A stretch of 64,000 nucleotides of DNA, taken from the NCBI GenBank assembly GCA_035544575.1, contig DATKEC010000132.1, positions 3,464 through 67,463 of the forward strand. The letters are read 5' to 3'. This stretch comes from Acidimicrobiia bacterium (GTDB lineage Bacteria > Actinomycetota > Acidimicrobiia > Spongiisociales > ZC4RG35). Of this stretch, positions 5,157 through 51,616 are shown one piece after another; the stretch's first letter is position 1, and every line of letters starts with the position of its first letter. The translations under genes were made by a program, and so were the position numbers. A model generated the notes under the pieces. It had not been told where the DNA came from. It was given only the letters and a program-made list of their open reading frames with translations, and searched no databases.

Positions 5157-6827
5157 ATGAGCCTCAAGATCCACTCTCAGGACGTGACCGAGGGCCCGGC
5201 CAAAGCCGGAGCCCGGGCGATGTTGCGCGCCGTCGGCCTCACCGAGGACGACTTCTCCAAGCCTCAGGTCGGTCTCGTTTCGGCGGGCAACGAGGTCACA
5301 CCGTGCAACGTGACGGGCCCCGAACTCGCCGCCAAGGCGAAGGAGGGTGTGGTCGCCAACGGGGGCGTCGGCCTGACGTTCGCCACGATCGCCGTCTCAG
5401 ACGGAATCTCCATGGGCCACGAGGGGATGCGTGCCTCGCTGGTCAGCCGCGAGATCATCGCCGACTCGGTCGAACTCGTCATGCATGCGGAGCGCTTCGA
5501 CGCGATGGTGACGATCGCCGGCTGTGACAAGTCCCTTCCGGGGATGTTGATGGCCGCTGCCCGCACCAACCTGCCGTCTGTGTTCCTCTACGGTGGGTCG
5601 TCGATGCCGGGTCGCTACCTCGACCGGGACATCGACATCGTCGACGTCTTCGAGGCGGTCGGTGCCCTGTCCGAAGGCCGGATCAGTCCCGAGGAGATGC
5701 TCGAGATCGAACGTAACGCCTGTCCCGGGGCTGGCTCGTGCGCCGGGATGTTCACGGCCAACACCATGGCGAGTGTCGGCGAGGCGATCGGCATGTCGTT
5801 GCCCGGCTCGAGCACGGTGCCTGCGATCGATCCCCGCTTGCGCGACTATGCCGTTTCCTCCGGCGAGGCGGTGATGCGGCTCCTGGCCGACAACGTCCGA
5901 CCCCGCCAGATCATGACCCGTCCCGCCTTCGAGAATGCCATTGCGACAGTGATGGCGCTGGGCGGGTCGACCAATGCGGTGTTGCATCTGATGGCGATCG
6001 CCAACGAAGCCGAGGTCGAACTCACCCTCGAGGACTTCGACCGCATCAGCCGGAAGACACCGCACATCGGTGACCTTCGCCCGTTCGGCAAGTACCACAT
6101 GGTCGGCCTCGACCGCATCGGTGGCGTCCCGGTGGTGCTGAAGGCCCTCCTGGACGAAGGACTCATCCACGGCGACGTGGCAACCGTCACCGGCCGGACC
6201 ATGGCCGAAAACCTCGCCGAGGTAACGATTCCCGACGACCAGGACGTGATCCGTTCGTTTCACCAACCGCTCGCCCGCGAGGGCGGCATCGCCGTGTTGC
6301 GGGGCTCGCTGGCTCCGGACGGCGCGGTCGTGAAGGTGGCTGGCATCGAACTCGATGTCTTCGAAGGCCCGGCCCGCGTCTTCGACGGCGAACAGGCGGC
6401 GCTCGAGTCGCTCTTCAACCATCGCATCAACAAGGGCGACATCGTCGTGATCCGAACCGAGGGCCCGAGGGGCGGGCCGGGGATGCGCGAGATGCTGCAG
6501 ATCACCGCCGCCATCAAAGGGGCAGGACTCGGCAAGGACGTCCTGCTGATCACCGACGGACGCTTTTCCGGCGGCACGACCGGTCTGTGCATCGGCCACG
6601 TCGCTCCCGAATCCGAGGTGGGTGGCCCGATCGGTCTGGTGGAAGAGGGCGACCGCATACGGGTGGAGGTTTCCTCCCGCCGACTCGACGTTCTGGTCTC
6701 CGATGAGGTTCTTGCCGAGCGGCGCGCCAACTGGAAGGCACATCCGCCCCGCTACCCGTCGGGCGTCCTGGCCAAGTACGCACGTCTGGTGGGTTCCGCC
6801 GAGCACGGTGCGGTCACCGGCGCGTGA
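5157..6827 (+). CDS. ilvD: dihydroxy-acid dehydratase
   Basis: 556 aa. IlvD/EDD family signatures (…[26 protein letters not shown]…[14 protein letters not shown]…). Confidence 0.92.
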
Positions 6828-19681: not shown

Positions 19682-20209
19682 GTGACCGAGTTCTGGCCCG
19701 GTGAGTTCCGGTTCTGTCCGATGTGTGCCACCGCTCTGCAGGCCACCGAGCGGGGTGGGCGAACCCGGATGGCGTGCCCGGGCTGCGGCTACGTGCACTT
19801 TCGCGATCCCGGTGTCGGCGCCGCGGTTCTCCTGGAGGATGGAGCCGGTCGGGTGCTGCTCGTGCAACGGGGGAGCAGCGCCACCAAGGCGGGCCTGTGG
19901 TGCGTGCCCTGTGGTTACGTGGACTACGGCGAAGAGGTGCGGGCGGCTGCGGCGAGGGAGGTGCGGGAGGAAACAGGGCTGGAGGTGGAGGTAGGGGATC
20001 CGGTCTTCGTCAGCTCCAACTTCCACGATCCGGAGAAGCTGACCGTCGGCATCTGGTTCGCGGGGCGGATCGTGGGCGGTGTCGCCGAGGCGGGAGACGA
20101 CGCCGTCGACGTCGGGTGGTTCGAACCCGGTGACTTACCACCGCTCGCCTTCGAGACCGATGCCGAGTTGTTCCGAGTTCGCTTCGGGGTCGACGCCCGG
20201 CTCGGCTGA
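19682..20209 (+). CDS. NUDIX hydrolase with N-terminal zinc ribbon
   Basis: CPMC…CPGC, then Nudix box GYVDYGEEVRAAAAREVREETGL. GTG start. Confidence 0.85.
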   Translation: MTEFWPGEFRFCPMCATALQATERGGRTRMACPGCGYVHFRDPGVGAAVLLEDGAGRVLLVQRGSSATKAGLWCVPCGYVDYGEEVRAAAAREVREETGLEVEVGDPVFVSSNFHDPEKLTVGIWFAGRIVGGVAEAGDDAVDVGWFEPGDLPPLAFETDAELFRVRFGVDARLG

Positions 20210-20866
20210 CGGCTGGGTTGGCCTGTGAGCTGACGCCTGGGTTGCCGCCGCGGCTGACGTCTCGGCCAGCTGGGCCTGCTCCGGGTGCCAGACCGTGAGC
20301 TCGGTCCACGGGGTTCCCGGTTTGAGCGTGATCACCGTTCCGTGCGCGGGCTTGTCGACGTGCTGGTTGGCGAGGTCGCGCCCGGTGATGGACAGCCGGG
20401 CGGCCTGGACGGGATCCTGGTGGGAGACCACGACGACGTCGCCGTCGTGGCGGGAGGCGATCGACGCCAGCACGGTTCGCATCCGTGCCGCGAGTGCGGT
20501 CAAAGACTCGGAGGCGAAAGGCATGTCGAGGGGATGCTCGAGGTACGCCTCGAGCTCGCCGGGGCGCTCCTTGGGAAGATCCTCCCAGGCGATCCCGGCC
20601 CAGTCGTCGGCCATCTTCCACTCGACGAGTTCGGGATCCACCCGGATGGGGATTCCGTGATGCGCGGCGACCGGCTCGGCGGTGGCGAGAGCGCGTTCCA
20701 GCGGTGAGGACCAGACGGCGACGACCGGGGCGGAGCGCAGGTAGCGGCTGACTGCCCGAGCCTGGGCCACCCCCGCTTCGGTCAGTTCGAACCCGGGCAA
20801 GGACGCATACACGACATGCCCCGGATTCCAGACCTCCCCATGCCTCACCAAGTGCACCCGCCCCAT
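20135..20866 (-). CDS. histidine phosphatase family protein (phosphoglycerate-mutase-like)
   Basis: MGRVHLVRHGEV… (RHG catalytic motif)…SSPLERALATA. Its 3' end overlaps the NUDIX gene convergently. Confidence 0.8.
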   Translation of the reverse strand: MGRVHLVRHGEVWNPGHVVYASLPGFELTEAGVAQARAVSRYLRSAPVVAVWSSPLERALATAEPVAAHHGIPIRVDPELVEWKMADDWAGIAWEDLPKERPGELEAYLEHPLDMPFASESLTALAARMRTVLASIASRHDGDVVVVSHQDPVQAARLSITGRDLANQHVDKPAHGTVITLKPGTPWTELTVWHPEQAQLAETSAAAATQASAHRPTQPSAEPGVDPEANSEQLGIGLEGERW

Positions 20867-20870
20867 ACCC

Positions 20871-20905
20871 GCTTTTTAGCGGGGCAGCGCGTCATTAGTG
20901 ACGCG
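20871..20905 (-). promoter_or_regulatory. 35-bp conserved element, copy A (GCTTTTTAGCGGGGCAGCGCGTCATTAGTGACGCG on +). Contains palindrome CGCGTCA-N4-TGACGCG. Ends 4 nt before the phosphatase ATG.
   Basis: Seen in sequence. 30 of 35 bases are identical to copies B and C. Confidence 0.6.
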
Positions 20906-20995
20906 TTTGGCATGAGAGAAGCGATGACAGGGGGCCGACGGTGCTGCTCGCGAGGGCGCCCGAACCCGGCCGCCTTGGGCTTCTCTAGTGCGGAT

Positions 20996-21030
20996 CGCGT
21001 CGTTTCTGACGCGCTGCCCCGCTAAAAAGC
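20996..21030 (+). promoter_or_regulatory. 35-bp conserved element, copy B (CGCGTCGTTTCTGACGCGCTGCCCCGCTAAAAAGC). Ends 5 nt before the dinB ATG.
   Basis: Seen in sequence. Inverted with respect to copy A, 90 bp away. Confidence 0.6.
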
Positions 21031-21035
21031 GAAGT

Positions 21036-22208
21036 ATGGCGTGGGGGGAGCGGGTGCTGCATGTCGACATAGACGCGTTCTTCGTCGCGGTCGAGCGGCT
21101 GCGGAGTCCGGGGCTGCGCGGCAGGCCGGTCGTCGTCGGGGGGACCGGACCGCGCAGCGTCGTGGCGGCCGCGTCCTACGAAGTTCGGTCGTACGGGATC
21201 CGGTCGGCGATGCCGATGTCCCGGGCTCGGGCGCTCTGCCGGGACTTGATCGTGGTCCCGCCGGACCACGCCGAATACGCCAGGGTGTCCGAAGAGGTGT
21301 TCGCGGTGTTCCGATCGTTCACACCGCTGGTCGAGGGGCTGTCGATCGACGAGGCGTTCCTGGACATCGGCGGCCTCCGGCACCACTTTCCCGGTCCCGC
21401 AGAGGTCGGCCACGCCGTGCGAGCGGCGATCGCCGAGAAGGTCGGGATCACCGCGTCGGTCGGCGTGGCCGCTACCAAGTTCCTCGCCAAGCTCGCCTCC
21501 GAGACCGCCAAGCCCGACGGCCTCTGCCACGTCCCGGCTCACGAGCAGCAGGACTTTCTCGATCCCCTCCGCATCGAGGCCCTGTGGGGAGTGGGCCAGG
21601 CCACCCGTGCCGCCCTCGAGACGGTGGGCGTCGAGACGGTGGCGGATCTGCGGGCTGTTCCGACACGCGCACTGGAGCGGGCTGTGGGCGCCTCGGTGGC
21701 GACTCACCTCGTCGAACTCGCCCACGGGCGCGATCCCCGCAAGGTCGAGCCCGATCGCGAAGTCAAGTCCGTCTCGGTCGAGGAGACCTACGACACCGAC
21801 ATCACCGGCGAGGCGGCGCTCAGGGTCGAGCTGCGCCGTCTGGCTGACCGTCTCGGGACCCGTCTCCGCCGGTCTGGGCTGGCGGGGAGGACCATCACCC
21901 TCAAAGTGCGGACCTCGGACTTCCAGACGGTGACGCGCTCGGTGACGCGGCCCGACGCCACGAACGGCGACCGTGACCTGTTCCTGACAGCCGTCCAACT
22001 TCTCGACGCCTCCGACCGAGGCGCCAAGCCGATCCGGCTGCTCGGTATCGGTGTGAGCCATCTGGTCTCGACCGAGGAAGCCGTGCAACTCGTCACGACC
22101 GGCGACCCGCGGTGGAACGATCTCGATGCCGCCGTCGACGCCATCCGCCGCCGATTCGGCGACGACGCGGTCGGTCCGGCAGGTCTCGCCGACCTGGACG
22201 AAAAGTGA
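21036..22208 (+). CDS. dinB: DNA polymerase IV (Y-family translesion polymerase)
   Basis: MAWGERVLHVDIDAFFVAVE…SYEVRSYGIRSAMP…SIDEAFLD… ATG at 21036 is in frame with the longer track ORF. Confidence 0.9.
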   Translation: MAWGERVLHVDIDAFFVAVERLRSPGLRGRPVVVGGTGPRSVVAAASYEVRSYGIRSAMPMSRARALCRDLIVVPPDHAEYARVSEEVFAVFRSFTPLVEGLSIDEAFLDIGGLRHHFPGPAEVGHAVRAAIAEKVGITASVGVAATKFLAKLASETAKPDGLCHVPAHEQQDFLDPLRIEALWGVGQATRAALETVGVETVADLRAVPTRALERAVGASVATHLVELAHGRDPRKVEPDREVKSVSVEETYDTDITGEAALRVELRRLADRLGTRLRRSGLAGRTITLKVRTSDFQTVTRSVTRPDATNGDRDLFLTAVQLLDASDRGAKPIRLLGIGVSHLVSTEEAVQLVTTGDPRWNDLDAAVDAIRRRFGDDAVGPAGLADLDEK

Positions 22209-29333: not shown

Positions 29334-29489
29334 CACCCCCTTCGTCCGGTCCGCTGCGCGTCCCGGCCACTTCCCCCGCTTCGGCCCTGCGGGCCGGGGG
29401 GAAGCAACGGCGAGCCACCCCCCTTCGTCCGGTCCGCTGCGCGTCCCGGCCACTTCCCCGCTTCGGCCCTGCGGGCCGGCGGGAAGCAA
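29334..29489 (+). repeat. tandem direct repeat, 2 x 74 bp (~96% identical, 8-bp spacer), each containing a GC-rich imperfect hairpin (CTTCCCCC…GGCCCTGCGGGCC…GGGGGAAG)
   Basis: Seen directly. Flanked by 19-bp direct repeats GCGGCGGGGACGGAGGGGG at 29291-29309 and 29503-29521. Confidence 0.8.
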
Positions 29490-29561
29490 TGGAGCAGGCG
29501 CAGCGGCGGGGACGGAGGGGGGCGATCCACCCGCCCGCGGGTGGGAAAGTGTCACATAGTG

Positions 29562-46397: not shown

Positions 46398-46410
46398 GCC
46401 CCGTTCTCTG

Positions 46411-46440
46411 TTGCTTCCCGCCGGCCCGCAGGGCCGGATT
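46411..46440 (-). repeat. inverted copy of the core of the 74-bp repeat (TTGCTTCCCGCCGGCCCGCAGGGCCGG), forming a GC hairpin between convergent divIVA and ileS
   Basis: Seen in sequence. Matches the reverse complement of the 29380-29407 core in roughly 24 of 26 positions. Confidence 0.6.
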
Positions 46441-46465
46441 GGGGATGGGGTGTTCCTTCCCGCCG

Positions 46466-49703: not shown

Positions 49704-49946
49704 ATGCGCGCCGTCGACGACGGGTTCGAGGTGGATGTCTGGGTGGTGCCGGGCGCCTCACGCGACTCGGTGGATGGCACTCACGGCGAGGCCTTGAAGG
49801 TGCGGGTGACCGCCCCGCCCGACCGGGGTAGGGCAAACCAGGCGGTCGCGGCCCTCCTCACGGCGCACTTCGGAACGCCCGCCATCCTCCTCCGCGGCGC
49901 AACCTCCCGCCACAAGACCTACCGAATCGCGTTTCTTAGCGAATGA
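49704..49946 (+). CDS. DUF167 (YggU/UPF0235) family protein
   Basis: …FEVDVWVVPGASRDSVDGTHGEALKVRVTAPPDRGRANQAVAALLTAHFG… The alternative GTG at 49692 is in frame. Confidence 0.65.
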   Translation: MRAVDDGFEVDVWVVPGASRDSVDGTHGEALKVRVTAPPDRGRANQAVAALLTAHFGTPAILLRGATSRHKTYRIAFLSE

Positions 49947-49993
49947 GCGTTACAAAAACGTGTCGCTTCGCGTGGCGAAACCGGGATCTTGCC

Positions 49994-51163
49994 TCAGGAC
50001 GTGGCAAGCCGTCGCTCGAGCGGGGTCGCAAAGCGCGGAGTGAACCTGCTCGGTCCGATGAACTGCGAGAGCCGTGCTGCCTCCACCTCGACCAGCCTCC
50101 GACCCTCGGCGGGAATGTCCTCGAGATACTCGATCGCCAACTCGCCGTCGGCCCGCTGCGCCCAGCCGCCCACCACCCGGCCATTCCACCAGACGGTCGG
50201 CCCGACGTTGCCGTTGCGGTCGAAGAGGTGTGGAACGTGGTCGCCGAGATACCAGTCCCGTTGCTTCCAGCCCATCGGAGTGGAGTCGAGGGCCGGGAGC
50301 AGCGCAGCCCACGGGTACACCGGGTCGACCGGCGCCAGATCGTCGGCAAGGACGAAACCCGGTCCGCCCTCCAATTCCACCTCCACCGCCCCGACGTCGC
50401 CCAGCGCCGTCCGTGTCTGACCGAGATTCCAGCCGGTCCACCATTGGAGGTCGGTGACCGTCCCGGGGCCATATCCGGACAACCAGGCACGGGCCAGGTG
50501 AGCCCTCGCCACGGCGGCGTCCATCTCGGCGACGTCGGTGCCGATCCACCGGCTCATGGGCGCATAGCGATACTGGCTGCTGATCCATGTTCCGAGCGGC
50601 CTCGTCCGGGCGAGCACACCGGATGCGGTCATGAGCAGCACGATCCGGCTCCCCACCGACAACGACCCGGTTTGGGAGCCGACGGGCGGGACGAAACGCC
50701 GGTCGAGTTCCGGCCGACCGGTGGTGAGTTCCCGCGTCGAAGCCTCTCCGATCTCTTCGAGCATGTCGAGTACGACCTCGACCATGGAGTCGATGTGCGC
50801 CGCGCCGTCGGAGGCCACTCCGGTTGTCTCGAACCATCCCGCCAGCCGTTTGCGCTCTCTGGCGACGAAGGAGTCGGTGTAGGCGCGCTGGACGACGCTG
50901 ATCCGGGGGACGGGAACGACGAAGAGGGTGCGCCGCATCCCGAGCATCCGCAGGCTGGTCCGTTGCTCATACAGGGCGGATTCGACCTCGGCGACGGAGT
51001 CGGCTGCGCCCCGCGCGGCGAATGCGAGAAACACCGTGACCGGGTCGGTCGAGTGAAGCCCGACGAGGGCTGCGGCGAGGTCGTCGACGGTGGCCGGGGA
51101 GTCCACCAGCCGGTGGCGTCGGGCCAGTCGCCACCGTCGCTCCTGGTCCGAGATGAGCCTCAC
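49994..51163 (-). CDS. winged-helix DNA-binding domain protein, DUF1006 / AlkZ–YcaQ-like putative DNA glycosylase
   Basis: 389 aa. N-terminal …RRWRLARRHRLV…VGLHSTDP… arrangement and overall length resemble the YcaQ/AlkZ family. GTG start. Confidence 0.5.
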   Translation of the reverse strand: MRLISDQERRWRLARRHRLVDSPATVDDLAAALVGLHSTDPVTVFLAFAARGAADSVAEVESALYEQRTSLRMLGMRRTLFVVPVPRISVVQRAYTDSFVARERKRLAGWFETTGVASDGAAHIDSMVEVVLDMLEEIGEASTRELTTGRPELDRRFVPPVGSQTGSLSVGSRIVLLMTASGVLARTRPLGTWISSQYRYAPMSRWIGTDVAEMDAAVARAHLARAWLSGYGPGTVTDLQWWTGWNLGQTRTALGDVGAVEVELEGGPGFVLADDLAPVDPVYPWAALLPALDSTPMGWKQRDWYLGDHVPHLFDRNGNVGPTVWWNGRVVGGWAQRADGELAIEYLEDIPAEGRRLVEVEAARLSQFIGPSRFTPRFATPLERRLATS

Positions 51164-51216
51164 GCGATTGCCACCTGCATGGCGGACGAGCGTAGAGCCC
51201 GTTCTCCACTGCCAAA

Positions 51217-51251
51217 CGCGTCAGTAATGACGCGCTGCCCCGCTAAAAAGC
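51217..51251 (+). promoter_or_regulatory. 35-bp conserved element, copy C (CGCGTCAGTAATGACGCGCTGCCCCGCTAAAAAGC)
   Basis: Seen in sequence. Abuts the stop of the thioredoxin-like gene and lies 54 nt upstream of the AlkZ-like GTG. Confidence 0.6.
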
Positions 51252-51616
51252 TATCTGGGGCTGGCGGAGTGGAGGTGTTTGGCGAGGACGTCCTTCTTGA
51301 CGAGGCCCGAAGCGCGCCAGCGCTGAGTGAACGTGTTGGCGCCCGGTCGGGTCGTCAGCACCATGAAGGTCGGCGTCGACATCACCTTGAACTTCAAGAA
51401 CGCGTCCGGAACCCGGGCGGCGTTGGCTTTGACGACGTGGGCGACCCCGTCGAACTCCTCGGCGAGTTCGTTGACGATCCCATCCATCGTCCGGCACGGC
51501 TGGCAGTTGGTCTGCATGAAATCGATGAGGACCGGCTGACCGGACCTCACCAATTCGTCGAGGTGTGAGACCGACTCGAGGTCGATCGGTTTGGTTCTCT
51601 TCGTGAACAATCCCAT
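51251..51616 (-). CDS. thioredoxin-like protein with atypical CQPC active site
   Basis: 121 aa. …[27 protein letters not shown]…[12 protein letters not shown]… thioredoxin fold. The longer track ORF (to 52357) is an antisense artefact over moaA. Confidence 0.75.

Follow-up and report, generated by a model that had tools for sequence, protein, structure and literature searches.

The window analyzed here, a stretch of 64,000 nt (67% GC) from contig DATKEC010000132.1 of an Acidimicrobiia bacterium, carries a short palindromic element between the gene of a thioredoxin-like protein with a CQPC motif (trx) and that of an AlkZ/YcaQ-like DNA glycosylase (alkZ). The original prediction described this element as the third copy of a 35-bp sequence and read it as a possible regulatory site beside DNA-repair genes. 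The 35-mer, CGCGTCAGTAATGACGCGCTGCCCCGCTAAAAAGC, is found at 51217–51251 on the plus strand, as described there (copy C). A search of the window allowing up to three mismatches recovers it at 20871–20905 on the minus strand with one mismatch (copy A; 0.00 matches expected, 100 shuffles). A third copy at 20996–21030 on the plus strand (copy B) differs in the palindrome (CGCGTCGTTTCTGACGCG) and has an identical 18-mer, GCTGCCCCGCTAAAAAGC. The half-sites are common to all three copies, and copy C has the same orientation as copy B, as predicted. Copy C is very probably one unit of a lineage-specific, dispersed palindromic repeat of a narrow clade of uncultured Acidimicrobiia, similar to the repetitive extragenic palindromic (REP) sequences and REPINs of other bacteria. 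Its position beside repair genes looks like a coincidence, not a shared repair switch.

Copy C and trx overlap by a single base: the 35-mer ends at 51251, where the trx TAG stop codon (51251–51253) begins when numbered along the plus strand. The palindrome is centered at 51225.5, 62.5 nt upstream of the alkZ GTG (51163), in agreement with the predicted distance of about 63 nt. Copy A abuts a gene of the His_Phos_1 phosphatase family (His_Phos) and copy B abuts dinB; with alkZ, assigned by Pfam, next to copy C, two of the three copies do adjoin DNA-repair genes. The size of the element needed revision. The 35-mer is real, and copies A and C are identical at 34/35 positions over it up to its end just past a TAAAAA hexamer; the conserved unit, however, measures 51 nt (51201–51251), and a 50-nt comparison of copies A and C gives 92% identity. 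The features discussed below are listed in Table 1, where the strands of units are read from the outer end.

The 51-nt unit and its doublets

At the Acidimicrobiia loci, the unit reads from its outer end GCTTTTTAGCGGGGCAGC, GGTTCA-N4-TGAACC and GCAACGCAGACCAGAAs, and consists of an 18-nt outer arm, an 8-bp stem with a 4-nt loop, and an inner arm of about 15 nt. In the window copies, the stem is GCGTCA/TGACGC and the inner arms are GTTTGGCAGTGGAGAAC (C), GTTTGGCATGAGAGAAG (A) and GATCCGCACTAGAGAAG (B). A covariance model (R1) was built from 27 aligned copies. In this alignment, 89% of the stem cells are paired and 19 cells carry double-sided changes, a level that none of 500 shuffles reaches, while slid controls give 19–39%. 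The stem changes from GC to CG at 11 of the 27 copies and from UA to GC at 7, whereas the non-palindromic arms are conserved, such that the palindrome is the least conserved section of the unit. The type of stem is specific to the genome, even at orthologous sites. It is GCGCGTCA in the window and in CAZCRP, and GCGGTTCA in LejiaD and LejiaC, where 7.6–8 of the 8 pairs are intact; the stems of LejiaA are degenerate, being heterogeneous and weaker (6 of 8 pairs). A single unit folds only modestly better than its shuffles (z −2 to −3).

Searches for known elements were negative at the copies. A sigma-70 promoter scan around all copies gave no match at them. The window has no Rfam match at gathering thresholds and, with E-values up to 10 admitted, only chance-level ones (E above 4) around copy C and none around A and B. 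An intrinsic (Rho-independent) terminator was considered and rejected because a terminator scan was empty at all three window copies and the consensus that follows the stem, GCAACGCAG, has no U-tract. A further R1 match, at 6690–6754, lies inside a coding open reading frame (ORF) with an E-value of 0.4 and was treated as chance.

Neighboring units are arranged almost exclusively as convergent pairs with the outer arms facing outward (18 of about 19, with gaps of 31 to 1759 nt; the single tandem pair is in locus L030). The closest pairs form doublets, 127–171 nt long, with inverted ends of 51 nt and spacers that are not conserved between doublets. RNA folding of the 160-nt A+B doublet yields one near-perfect hairpin that includes the spacer (−111.4 kcal/mol, z −11). 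Copy C has a convergent partner of its own in the degenerate copy D, which sits shortly after the alkZ stop and shares sequence with the final codons of a DUF167 gene; an equivalent degenerate copy is found 3' of alkZ in L001, L002 and L003.

The 40 nt upstream of the outer arm have a skewed composition in 44 copies (C 0.43–0.45 and G about 0.21, versus 0.34 and 0.31 further upstream). Pairing of an upstream C-rich run with the GGGG of the outer arm was considered and set aside, the enrichment being weak (12/44 copies versus 3–7/44 in control windows).

Table 1. Position of the repeat units and of the neighboring genes and signals in the window
Feature	Position	Strand	Evidence or remark
Copy C, whole 51-nt repeat unit	51201..51251	-	Covariance model R1, 64.1 bits, E 1.5e-16; aligns with 26 other copies
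Copy C outer arm, GCTTTTTAGCGGGGCAGC	51251-51234	-	Part of the 51-nt unit
Copy C hairpin, GCGCGTCA-TTAC-TGACGCGT	51235-51216	-	Part of the 51-nt unit
Copy C inner arm, TTGGCAGTGGAGAAC	51215-51201	-	Part of the 51-nt unit
Copy A	20871-20921	+	R1, 61.2 bits
Copy B	20980-21030	-	R1, 58.5 bits
A+B convergent doublet, 160 nt	20871..21030	.	Fills nearly the whole gap from the His_Phos ATG (20866, -) to the dinB ATG (21036, +)
Copy D, weak and degenerate fourth copy	49931..49981	+	R1, 15.5 bits, E about 0.009
AlkZ/YcaQ-like DNA glycosylase gene	49994..51163	-	Pfam PF06224 AlkZ-like, 3.3e-54; homologs 92% and about 70% identical
Thioredoxin-like gene (CQPC)	51251..51616	-	Pfam Thioredoxin, 1e-11
moaA	51620-52705	+	Pfam
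Histidine phosphatase gene	20135..20866	-	Pfam His_Phos_1, 9e-39; ATG 6 nt past the TAAAAA of copy A
dinB (DNA polymerase IV)	21036..22208	+	Pfam IMS and IMS_C; ATG 7 nt past the TAAAAA of copy B
Predicted -10 hexamer TACGCT of the alkZ promoter	51189..51194	-	6 nt past the inner end of copy C; inferred from consensus
Remnant mini-ORF ATG CAG GTG GCA ATC GCG TGA (MQVAIA, then stop), 6 codons	51160..51180	-	TGA overlaps the alkZ GTG (GTGA)

Distribution, insertion sites and neighboring genes

A scan for the 18-mer in one genome per species (185,579 species) returned 40 loci, of which 25 belong to four Acidimicrobiia metagenome-assembled genomes (MAGs) with 2 to about 14 exact copies each: LejiaD_65_18 (about 14), LejiaA_66_105 (7), Acidimicrobiaceae SRP217488_co1_44 (4) and LejiaC_65_80 (2). 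At every Acidimicrobiia locus, the 18-mer is embedded in the 51-nt unit. The other 15 loci are single matches in unrelated taxa, about the number estimated to arise by chance for an 18-mer. Comparison with 72,556 plasmids and 50,697 phage records gave a single chance match; no autonomous element with the ends of the unit was found in either set. The homologs of the window AlkZ and DinB likewise carry Acidimicrobiia MAG labels, and an exact look-up of the window AlkZ protein returned no identical record. Literature searches on Actinobacteria and Acidimicrobiia returned no report of REPs, RAYTs or intergenic repeats.

The comparison loci (designated L001 onward; about 350 kb in total) show filled and empty versions of the same sites, which indicates that units were inserted into short intergenic gaps. 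Around dinB, the neighborhood of NUDIX, His_Phos, dinB, DUF3040, MerR and TgpA genes is conserved, and the gap between His_Phos and dinB varies by lineage. In L066 (63% DinB identity), this gap is 53 nt long and has no unit, with canonical -10 boxes in both directions, TAGCCT 6 nt before the ATG of dinB and TACCGT 10 nt before that of His_Phos. A single degenerate unit occupies the gap in L064 (75% DinB identity), and a doublet does so in the window and in LejiaA (L039). In L065 (72% DinB identity), two units of a derived type flank an extra transglutaminase-like gene between His_Phos and dinB. The trx site is filled in the window, L051, L002, L030 and L005. It is empty in L069 (66% AlkZ identity), where trx is followed after 20 nt by TACGCT and, 9 nt further, by the ATG of the next gene. 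The alkZ-purK site of L069 is also empty (alkZ, 8 nt, then TACCCT 7 nt before the ATG of purK), and in L068 alkZ and purK overlap, with no unit between them.

The derived units of L065 (1085–1135 and 1928–1975) are 'double-foot' forms, in which a hairpin is flanked by an inner arm on both sides and the outer 18-mer is absent; they suggest recombination at the hairpins. The first 20 nt of L001 are also unusual. They resembled a breakpoint at the hairpin foot, but are probably an artefact of the contig end, because L051, of the same lineage, has a full unit.

All copies examined sit between genes or overlap last codons only. About 70% of them (~38/55) have a co-directional ORF with coding-like third-position GC that stops at −12 to +9 of the outer end. 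These stops were called with a simple ORF finder that relies on third-position GC and may mistake antisense frames for genes, with a Pfam check on a subset only. At ~20 of these ~38 copies, the stop is the element's own TAG, as in PafC, which ends in ...RYSAF, and FolD, which ends in ...AAEAF. The TAG stop and the element have the G in common at six copies, including that of trx. The 3' ends backed by Pfam belong to PafC, MerR, CtaG, AtuA, ATG22 and an ImuB-like gene, and one copy lies directly 3' of a tRNA. At other copies the outer arm faces a gene start, namely those of His_Phos, dinB, purK, a Zn-ribbon gene and a CcdA-like gene. The neighbors as a whole are heterogeneous, and include a branched-chain amino-acid permease, CtaG, MFS and ATG22 transporters, an acyltransferase, AtuA, MerR, BacA, Zn-ADH, MgtE, CcdA/DsbD, FolD, PafC, DUF559/AbiEi and the ImuB-like protein. 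Among the repair-related ones, the imuB-like gene and pafC have the unit at their 3' end, not at their promoter.

Individual loci illustrate these arrangements. In L016 (871–2343), L049 (1214–2128), L025 and L043, genes end at or a few nucleotides before the outer end (ImuB-like, MerR) or in ...AF on the TAG of the repeat (FolD, PafC). In two species, an AbiEi_4/DUF559 gene (Vsr-like nuclease) is bracketed by two inverted units (L045 4610–5693 and L038 935–1995). This gene directly follows pafC, whose last two codons and stop (AF, then stop) are unit sequence, and in L045 the units are within 2–10 nt of it. This bracketed arrangement may be likened to a REPtron.

Promoters next to the unit

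In relatives of the window, the gene order is trx, unit, a gene of 225–231 aa of unknown family, alkZ, purK and purE, and the middle gene is complete in L002, L005, L030 and L069. This gene has a conserved -10 box (TACCCT or TACGCT) only 8–9 nt before its ATG, from which its mRNA would be leaderless. In the window, L001 and L051, the middle gene is deleted, and its -10 box and ATG (51180 in the window) are kept. The window TACGCT aligns with TACCCT or TACGCT in L001, L002, L030, L005, L051 and the element-free L069. Since box and ATG were retained after the middle gene was lost, alkZ is most likely expressed, judging from the sequence, from the inherited leaderless promoter of the deleted gene. 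Copy C was inserted between the trx stop and this pre-existing promoter. The inner arm of copy C would occupy the -35 region of the predicted alkZ promoter, with the palindrome centered at about −45.5 from the predicted transcription start, and not at the −61 of the original prediction. The unit appears to be dispensable for this promoter, because the element-free L069 has the same one. The idea that the unit generally carries a 'promoter cassette', with its -10 box always equally far from the inner arm, was considered and rejected: such a box occurs only at the trx site and the L032/L034 site, and the spacings differ.

The second option of the original prediction was that the A-rich end of the element drives an antisense or small transcript on the plus strand. 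We consider tentatively that the outer arm contains a non-canonical -10 element (CTAAAAAG) and could serve as a portable outward promoter with starts 6–7 nt beyond the unit. It would produce leaderless His_Phos and dinB mRNAs at the A+B doublet and, at copy C, an antisense RNA that begins near 51258 (+) and runs into the 3' end of trx. The 169-nt divergent gap between the start codons of His_Phos and dinB is nearly all doublet, so the promoters of both genes must lie inside it. Inspection by eye found TAAAAA to be the sole -10-like hexamer at a workable distance, 6 nt from the His_Phos ATG and 7 nt from the dinB ATG. The His_Phos ATG follows TAAAAA by 6–7 nt in three lineages (window, L039 and L064), and the empty site of L066 has TACCGT in its place. 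These observations support the view that the outer arm was recruited to drive a putative leaderless His_Phos mRNA, and TAAAAA is probably the -10 element of dinB at the doublet as well. Given the near-identity of copies A and C through this hexamer, an antisense start at copy C is possible by analogy. The Correia elements of Neisseria provide a precedent, as they can give rise to promoters at one end or at both, and to a long RNA hairpin when they are transcribed (PMC2649163).

Several observations argue against this proposal. The T that normally closes the TAnnnT -10 box of actinobacteria is absent from TAAAAA, and the sigma-70 scan gave no match at the copies. A separate TAnnnT box beyond the unit is kept by purK everywhere and by dinB in LejiaA, L064 and L065. 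In addition, such a promoter would direct antisense transcription into coding genes at most copies, at a seemingly high cost.

The database DinB that is 100% identical to the window protein has 384 aa, which fits a GTG start at 21054. However, DinB homologs conserve an N-terminal W-x-E-[RP]-[IV]-LHVD upstream of that GTG, and the ATG at 21036 (390 aa) is therefore the better start. Repeats of this kind influence the expression of nearby genes. In the window, the repeat seems to have taken the place of the His_Phos promoter, and it covers the -35 region of the predicted alkZ promoter.

Nature of the element

The properties of the unit agree with those of REP sequences and REPINs, such as the BIMEs of E. 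coli and the REPINs of Pseudomonas (PMC3337134, PMC6006769, PMC12306157). It is a short repeat around an imperfect palindrome with conserved flanks (51 nt, 8-bp stem, 27 copies). It occurs in many dispersed extragenic copies (~14 loci in LejiaD_65_18, 7 in LejiaA, and 3 strong copies and 1 weak copy in the 64-kb window), either alone or in inverted pairs, which fold into a single long hairpin although their spacers vary. REPINs are likewise built of a palindrome with 5' and 3' flanks, paired in inverted orientation around a spacer that contributes to the hairpin without being conserved (PMC3337134). Further similarities are the genome-specific types, which suggest co-evolution with a trans-acting factor, the long vertical persistence at fixed sites, the absence of target duplications, the frequent position just after stops, and the existence of 'double-foot' derivatives. 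In contrast to REPs and REPINs, the unit has no GT[AG]G tag, its conserved arms are longer (18 and ~15 nt), and only tens of copies have been seen. The published classes 2.6 and 3 also have no such tag (PMC6006769).

The filled and empty sites show that the units, present singly or in convergent pairs with a common long hairpin, entered short gaps between genes. By comparison with REPINs, they would be propagated or homogenized within each genome by a putative trans-acting enzyme that recognizes the hairpin, as RAYT transposases of the HUH type do with REPINs. At copy C, the foot of the hairpin is 15 nt past the trx stop; as a secondary effect, it could act as an mRNA 3' hairpin or as an obstacle to ribosomes. 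The 225-aa gene having been lost, the leaderless promoter that copy C adjoins would be the one that most likely drives alkZ.

A number of points weigh against this interpretation. No transposase was detected by Pfam among 35 flanking and window ORFs, nor by a look among the genes between pairs, although no whole-genome scan was made. Neither GTAG nor GTGG is present at the hairpin foot on either strand in the 27-copy consensus inspected. No direct repeat of 2–10 nt, as a target-site duplication would leave, was found at nine doublets or in comparisons of filled with empty sites. The copy number is modest, with tens per genome as far as seen and not hundreds, and a scan of JGI metagenomes for a 19-mer found only 16 contigs, which implies that the family is narrow. 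Several sites are shared by orthology between species with ~70% identity in the flanking proteins, so that movement of the unit must be rare, and the 18-mer may owe its invariance to selection for a host function and not to replication. The apparent invariance of the 18-mer is itself partly due to ascertainment, because copies were gathered by exact match to it. Finally, the comparison sequences are all MAG or metagenome contigs, in which repeats can cause mis-joins.

An alternative, though an unlikely one, is an RNA element selected by the host, a 3' hairpin that stabilizes, terminates or insulates the transcript, or that dampens the termination of translation in the gene before it, which is trx at copy C. 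It would account for the co-directional stops near the outer end at about 70% of the copies, for the conservation of sites and 18-mer across species, and for the doublets between convergent genes in L011, L016 and L044. The hairpin foot lies 7–15 nt past the stop, within the range of ribosome stalling by E. coli REPs, which occurs when they are ≤15 nt from the stop (PMC12306157, citing Liang et al.). However, the hairpin is not followed by a U-tract, the terminator scan was empty at the copies, and the fold of a single unit is only slightly better than that of shuffles. The unit is also found in the opposite orientation directly after stops (alkZ-purK site), doublets lie between divergent starts at A/B and in L039, and related genomes do without the unit at the same sites.

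It is improbable that the 51-nt units represent the inverted ends of a miniature inverted-repeat transposable element (MITE), i.e., a non-autonomous element derived from a DDE transposon, 130–170 bp when empty and longer with cargo, with singletons as solo ends. The nearly invariable convergence of neighboring pairs, the MITE-like size of the 127–171 nt doublets with their terminal inverted repeats, and the coexistence of filled and empty sites would fit such an element, and some pairs enclose one or two genes (alkZ, DUF559, a CNNM/CorC-type gene and what we read as a DM13-like gene). The enclosed genes, however, are syntenic housekeeping genes, the nine doublets are without target-site duplication, and no autonomous element with these ends is present in the loci or in the plasmid and phage records. 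The internal hairpin of each arm, with its genome-specific covariation, is better suited to an enzyme that recognizes structure than to a DDE transposase.

We give a similarly low probability to a variant in which the unit is a genome-specific, vertically inherited, REPIN-like replicator whose partner is not a RAYT, the AbiEi/DUF559 nuclease being a candidate. The outer arm would then be a portable, non-canonical leaderless promoter, with antisense transcripts into the 3' end of the upstream gene at the majority of copies, copy C among them. Genes lying between paired units, such as alkZ, could in this variant be moved or inverted.

The weakest proposal is that of the original prediction, in which CGCGTCA-N4-TGACGCG is the site of a dimeric transcription factor (a repressor or a class I/II activator at about −61) that co-regulates dinB and alkZ; we reject it as highly improbable, even though two of the three window copies abut these genes, others abut the ImuB-like gene, pafC and the DUF559 nuclease gene, the three window copies have the same half-sites, and the palindrome center would be ~45 nt from the predicted alkZ transcription start, on its upstream side, with the palindrome also reaching into the -35 region of promoters on the TAAAAA side. 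Most copies are at the 3' ends or stops of unrelated genes (transporters, CtaG, FolD, MerR, AtuA, a tRNA), which include those of imuB and pafC, and relatives keep the gene neighborhoods and ordinary TAnnnT promoters without the element. A fixed operator would keep its half-sites and let the flanks drift, the opposite of what the covarying stem and conserved arms of the unit exhibit. The palindrome also does not seem to resemble the actinobacterial LexA box or the PafBC/RecA-NDp motif.

The REP/REPIN-like repeat has features in common with other families of bacterial repeats. Correia repeat-enclosed elements (CREE) have ends of ~26 bp, a TA target duplication and an IHF site. The unit differs from them in that it has no duplication, carries a hairpin at each end and is commonly a singleton; the A/B doublet nevertheless looks analogous to these elements of ~100–160 bp, which have inverted-repeat ends and are inserted beside genes (PMC2649163). 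The subterminal ends of IS200/IS605-family elements and of their miniature derivatives also combine a hairpin with conserved flanks and no target duplication. These hairpin ends are recognized as single-stranded DNA by an HUH Y1 transposase (PMC6006769), and they are distinct on the left and right, unlike the ends here, which are inverted copies of one sequence. In the loci examined, neither tnpA nor tnpB is present among the genes that lie between the copies or close to them.

Among actinobacteria, the mycobacterial interspersed repetitive units (MIRUs) of Supply et al. (1997) are reportedly intergenic repeats of 40–100 bp in operons, with the upstream stop and the downstream start overlapping the repeat ends. 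The ~20 units whose TAG seems to be used as stop codon by the preceding ORF are similar in this respect, whereas MIRUs are direct tandem repeats with neither hairpin nor inverted doublets.

Recognition of the REP/REPIN-like repeat removes a false lead, the DNA-damage regulon motif that was inferred from two repair genes with a common repeat, and documents a previously undescribed family of this type in an uncultured actinobacterial class. If a trans-acting enzyme is found, REPIN-type biology would be extended beyond the groups in which it has mainly been investigated, such as the Pseudomonads and Enterobacteria. The units also mark places of possible breaks or mis-joins in MAG assemblies. Synteny of the window with every relative (alkZ followed by purK-purE) stops exactly at the outer end of copy D, beyond which the DUF167/ileS side takes the place of purK; this break is either a real rearrangement at the repeat or a MAG assembly mis-join.

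A second, unrelated hairpin repeat, CCCCGCTTCGGCCCTGCGGGCCGG(G/C)GGGAAGCAA(C/T)GG, is present in the window at 29336–29494 and 46405–46450. Two of its copies lie within a perfect 41-nt tandem duplication (29336–29376 = 29419–29459, period 83), and one inverted copy is located between the stops of divIVA and ileS.

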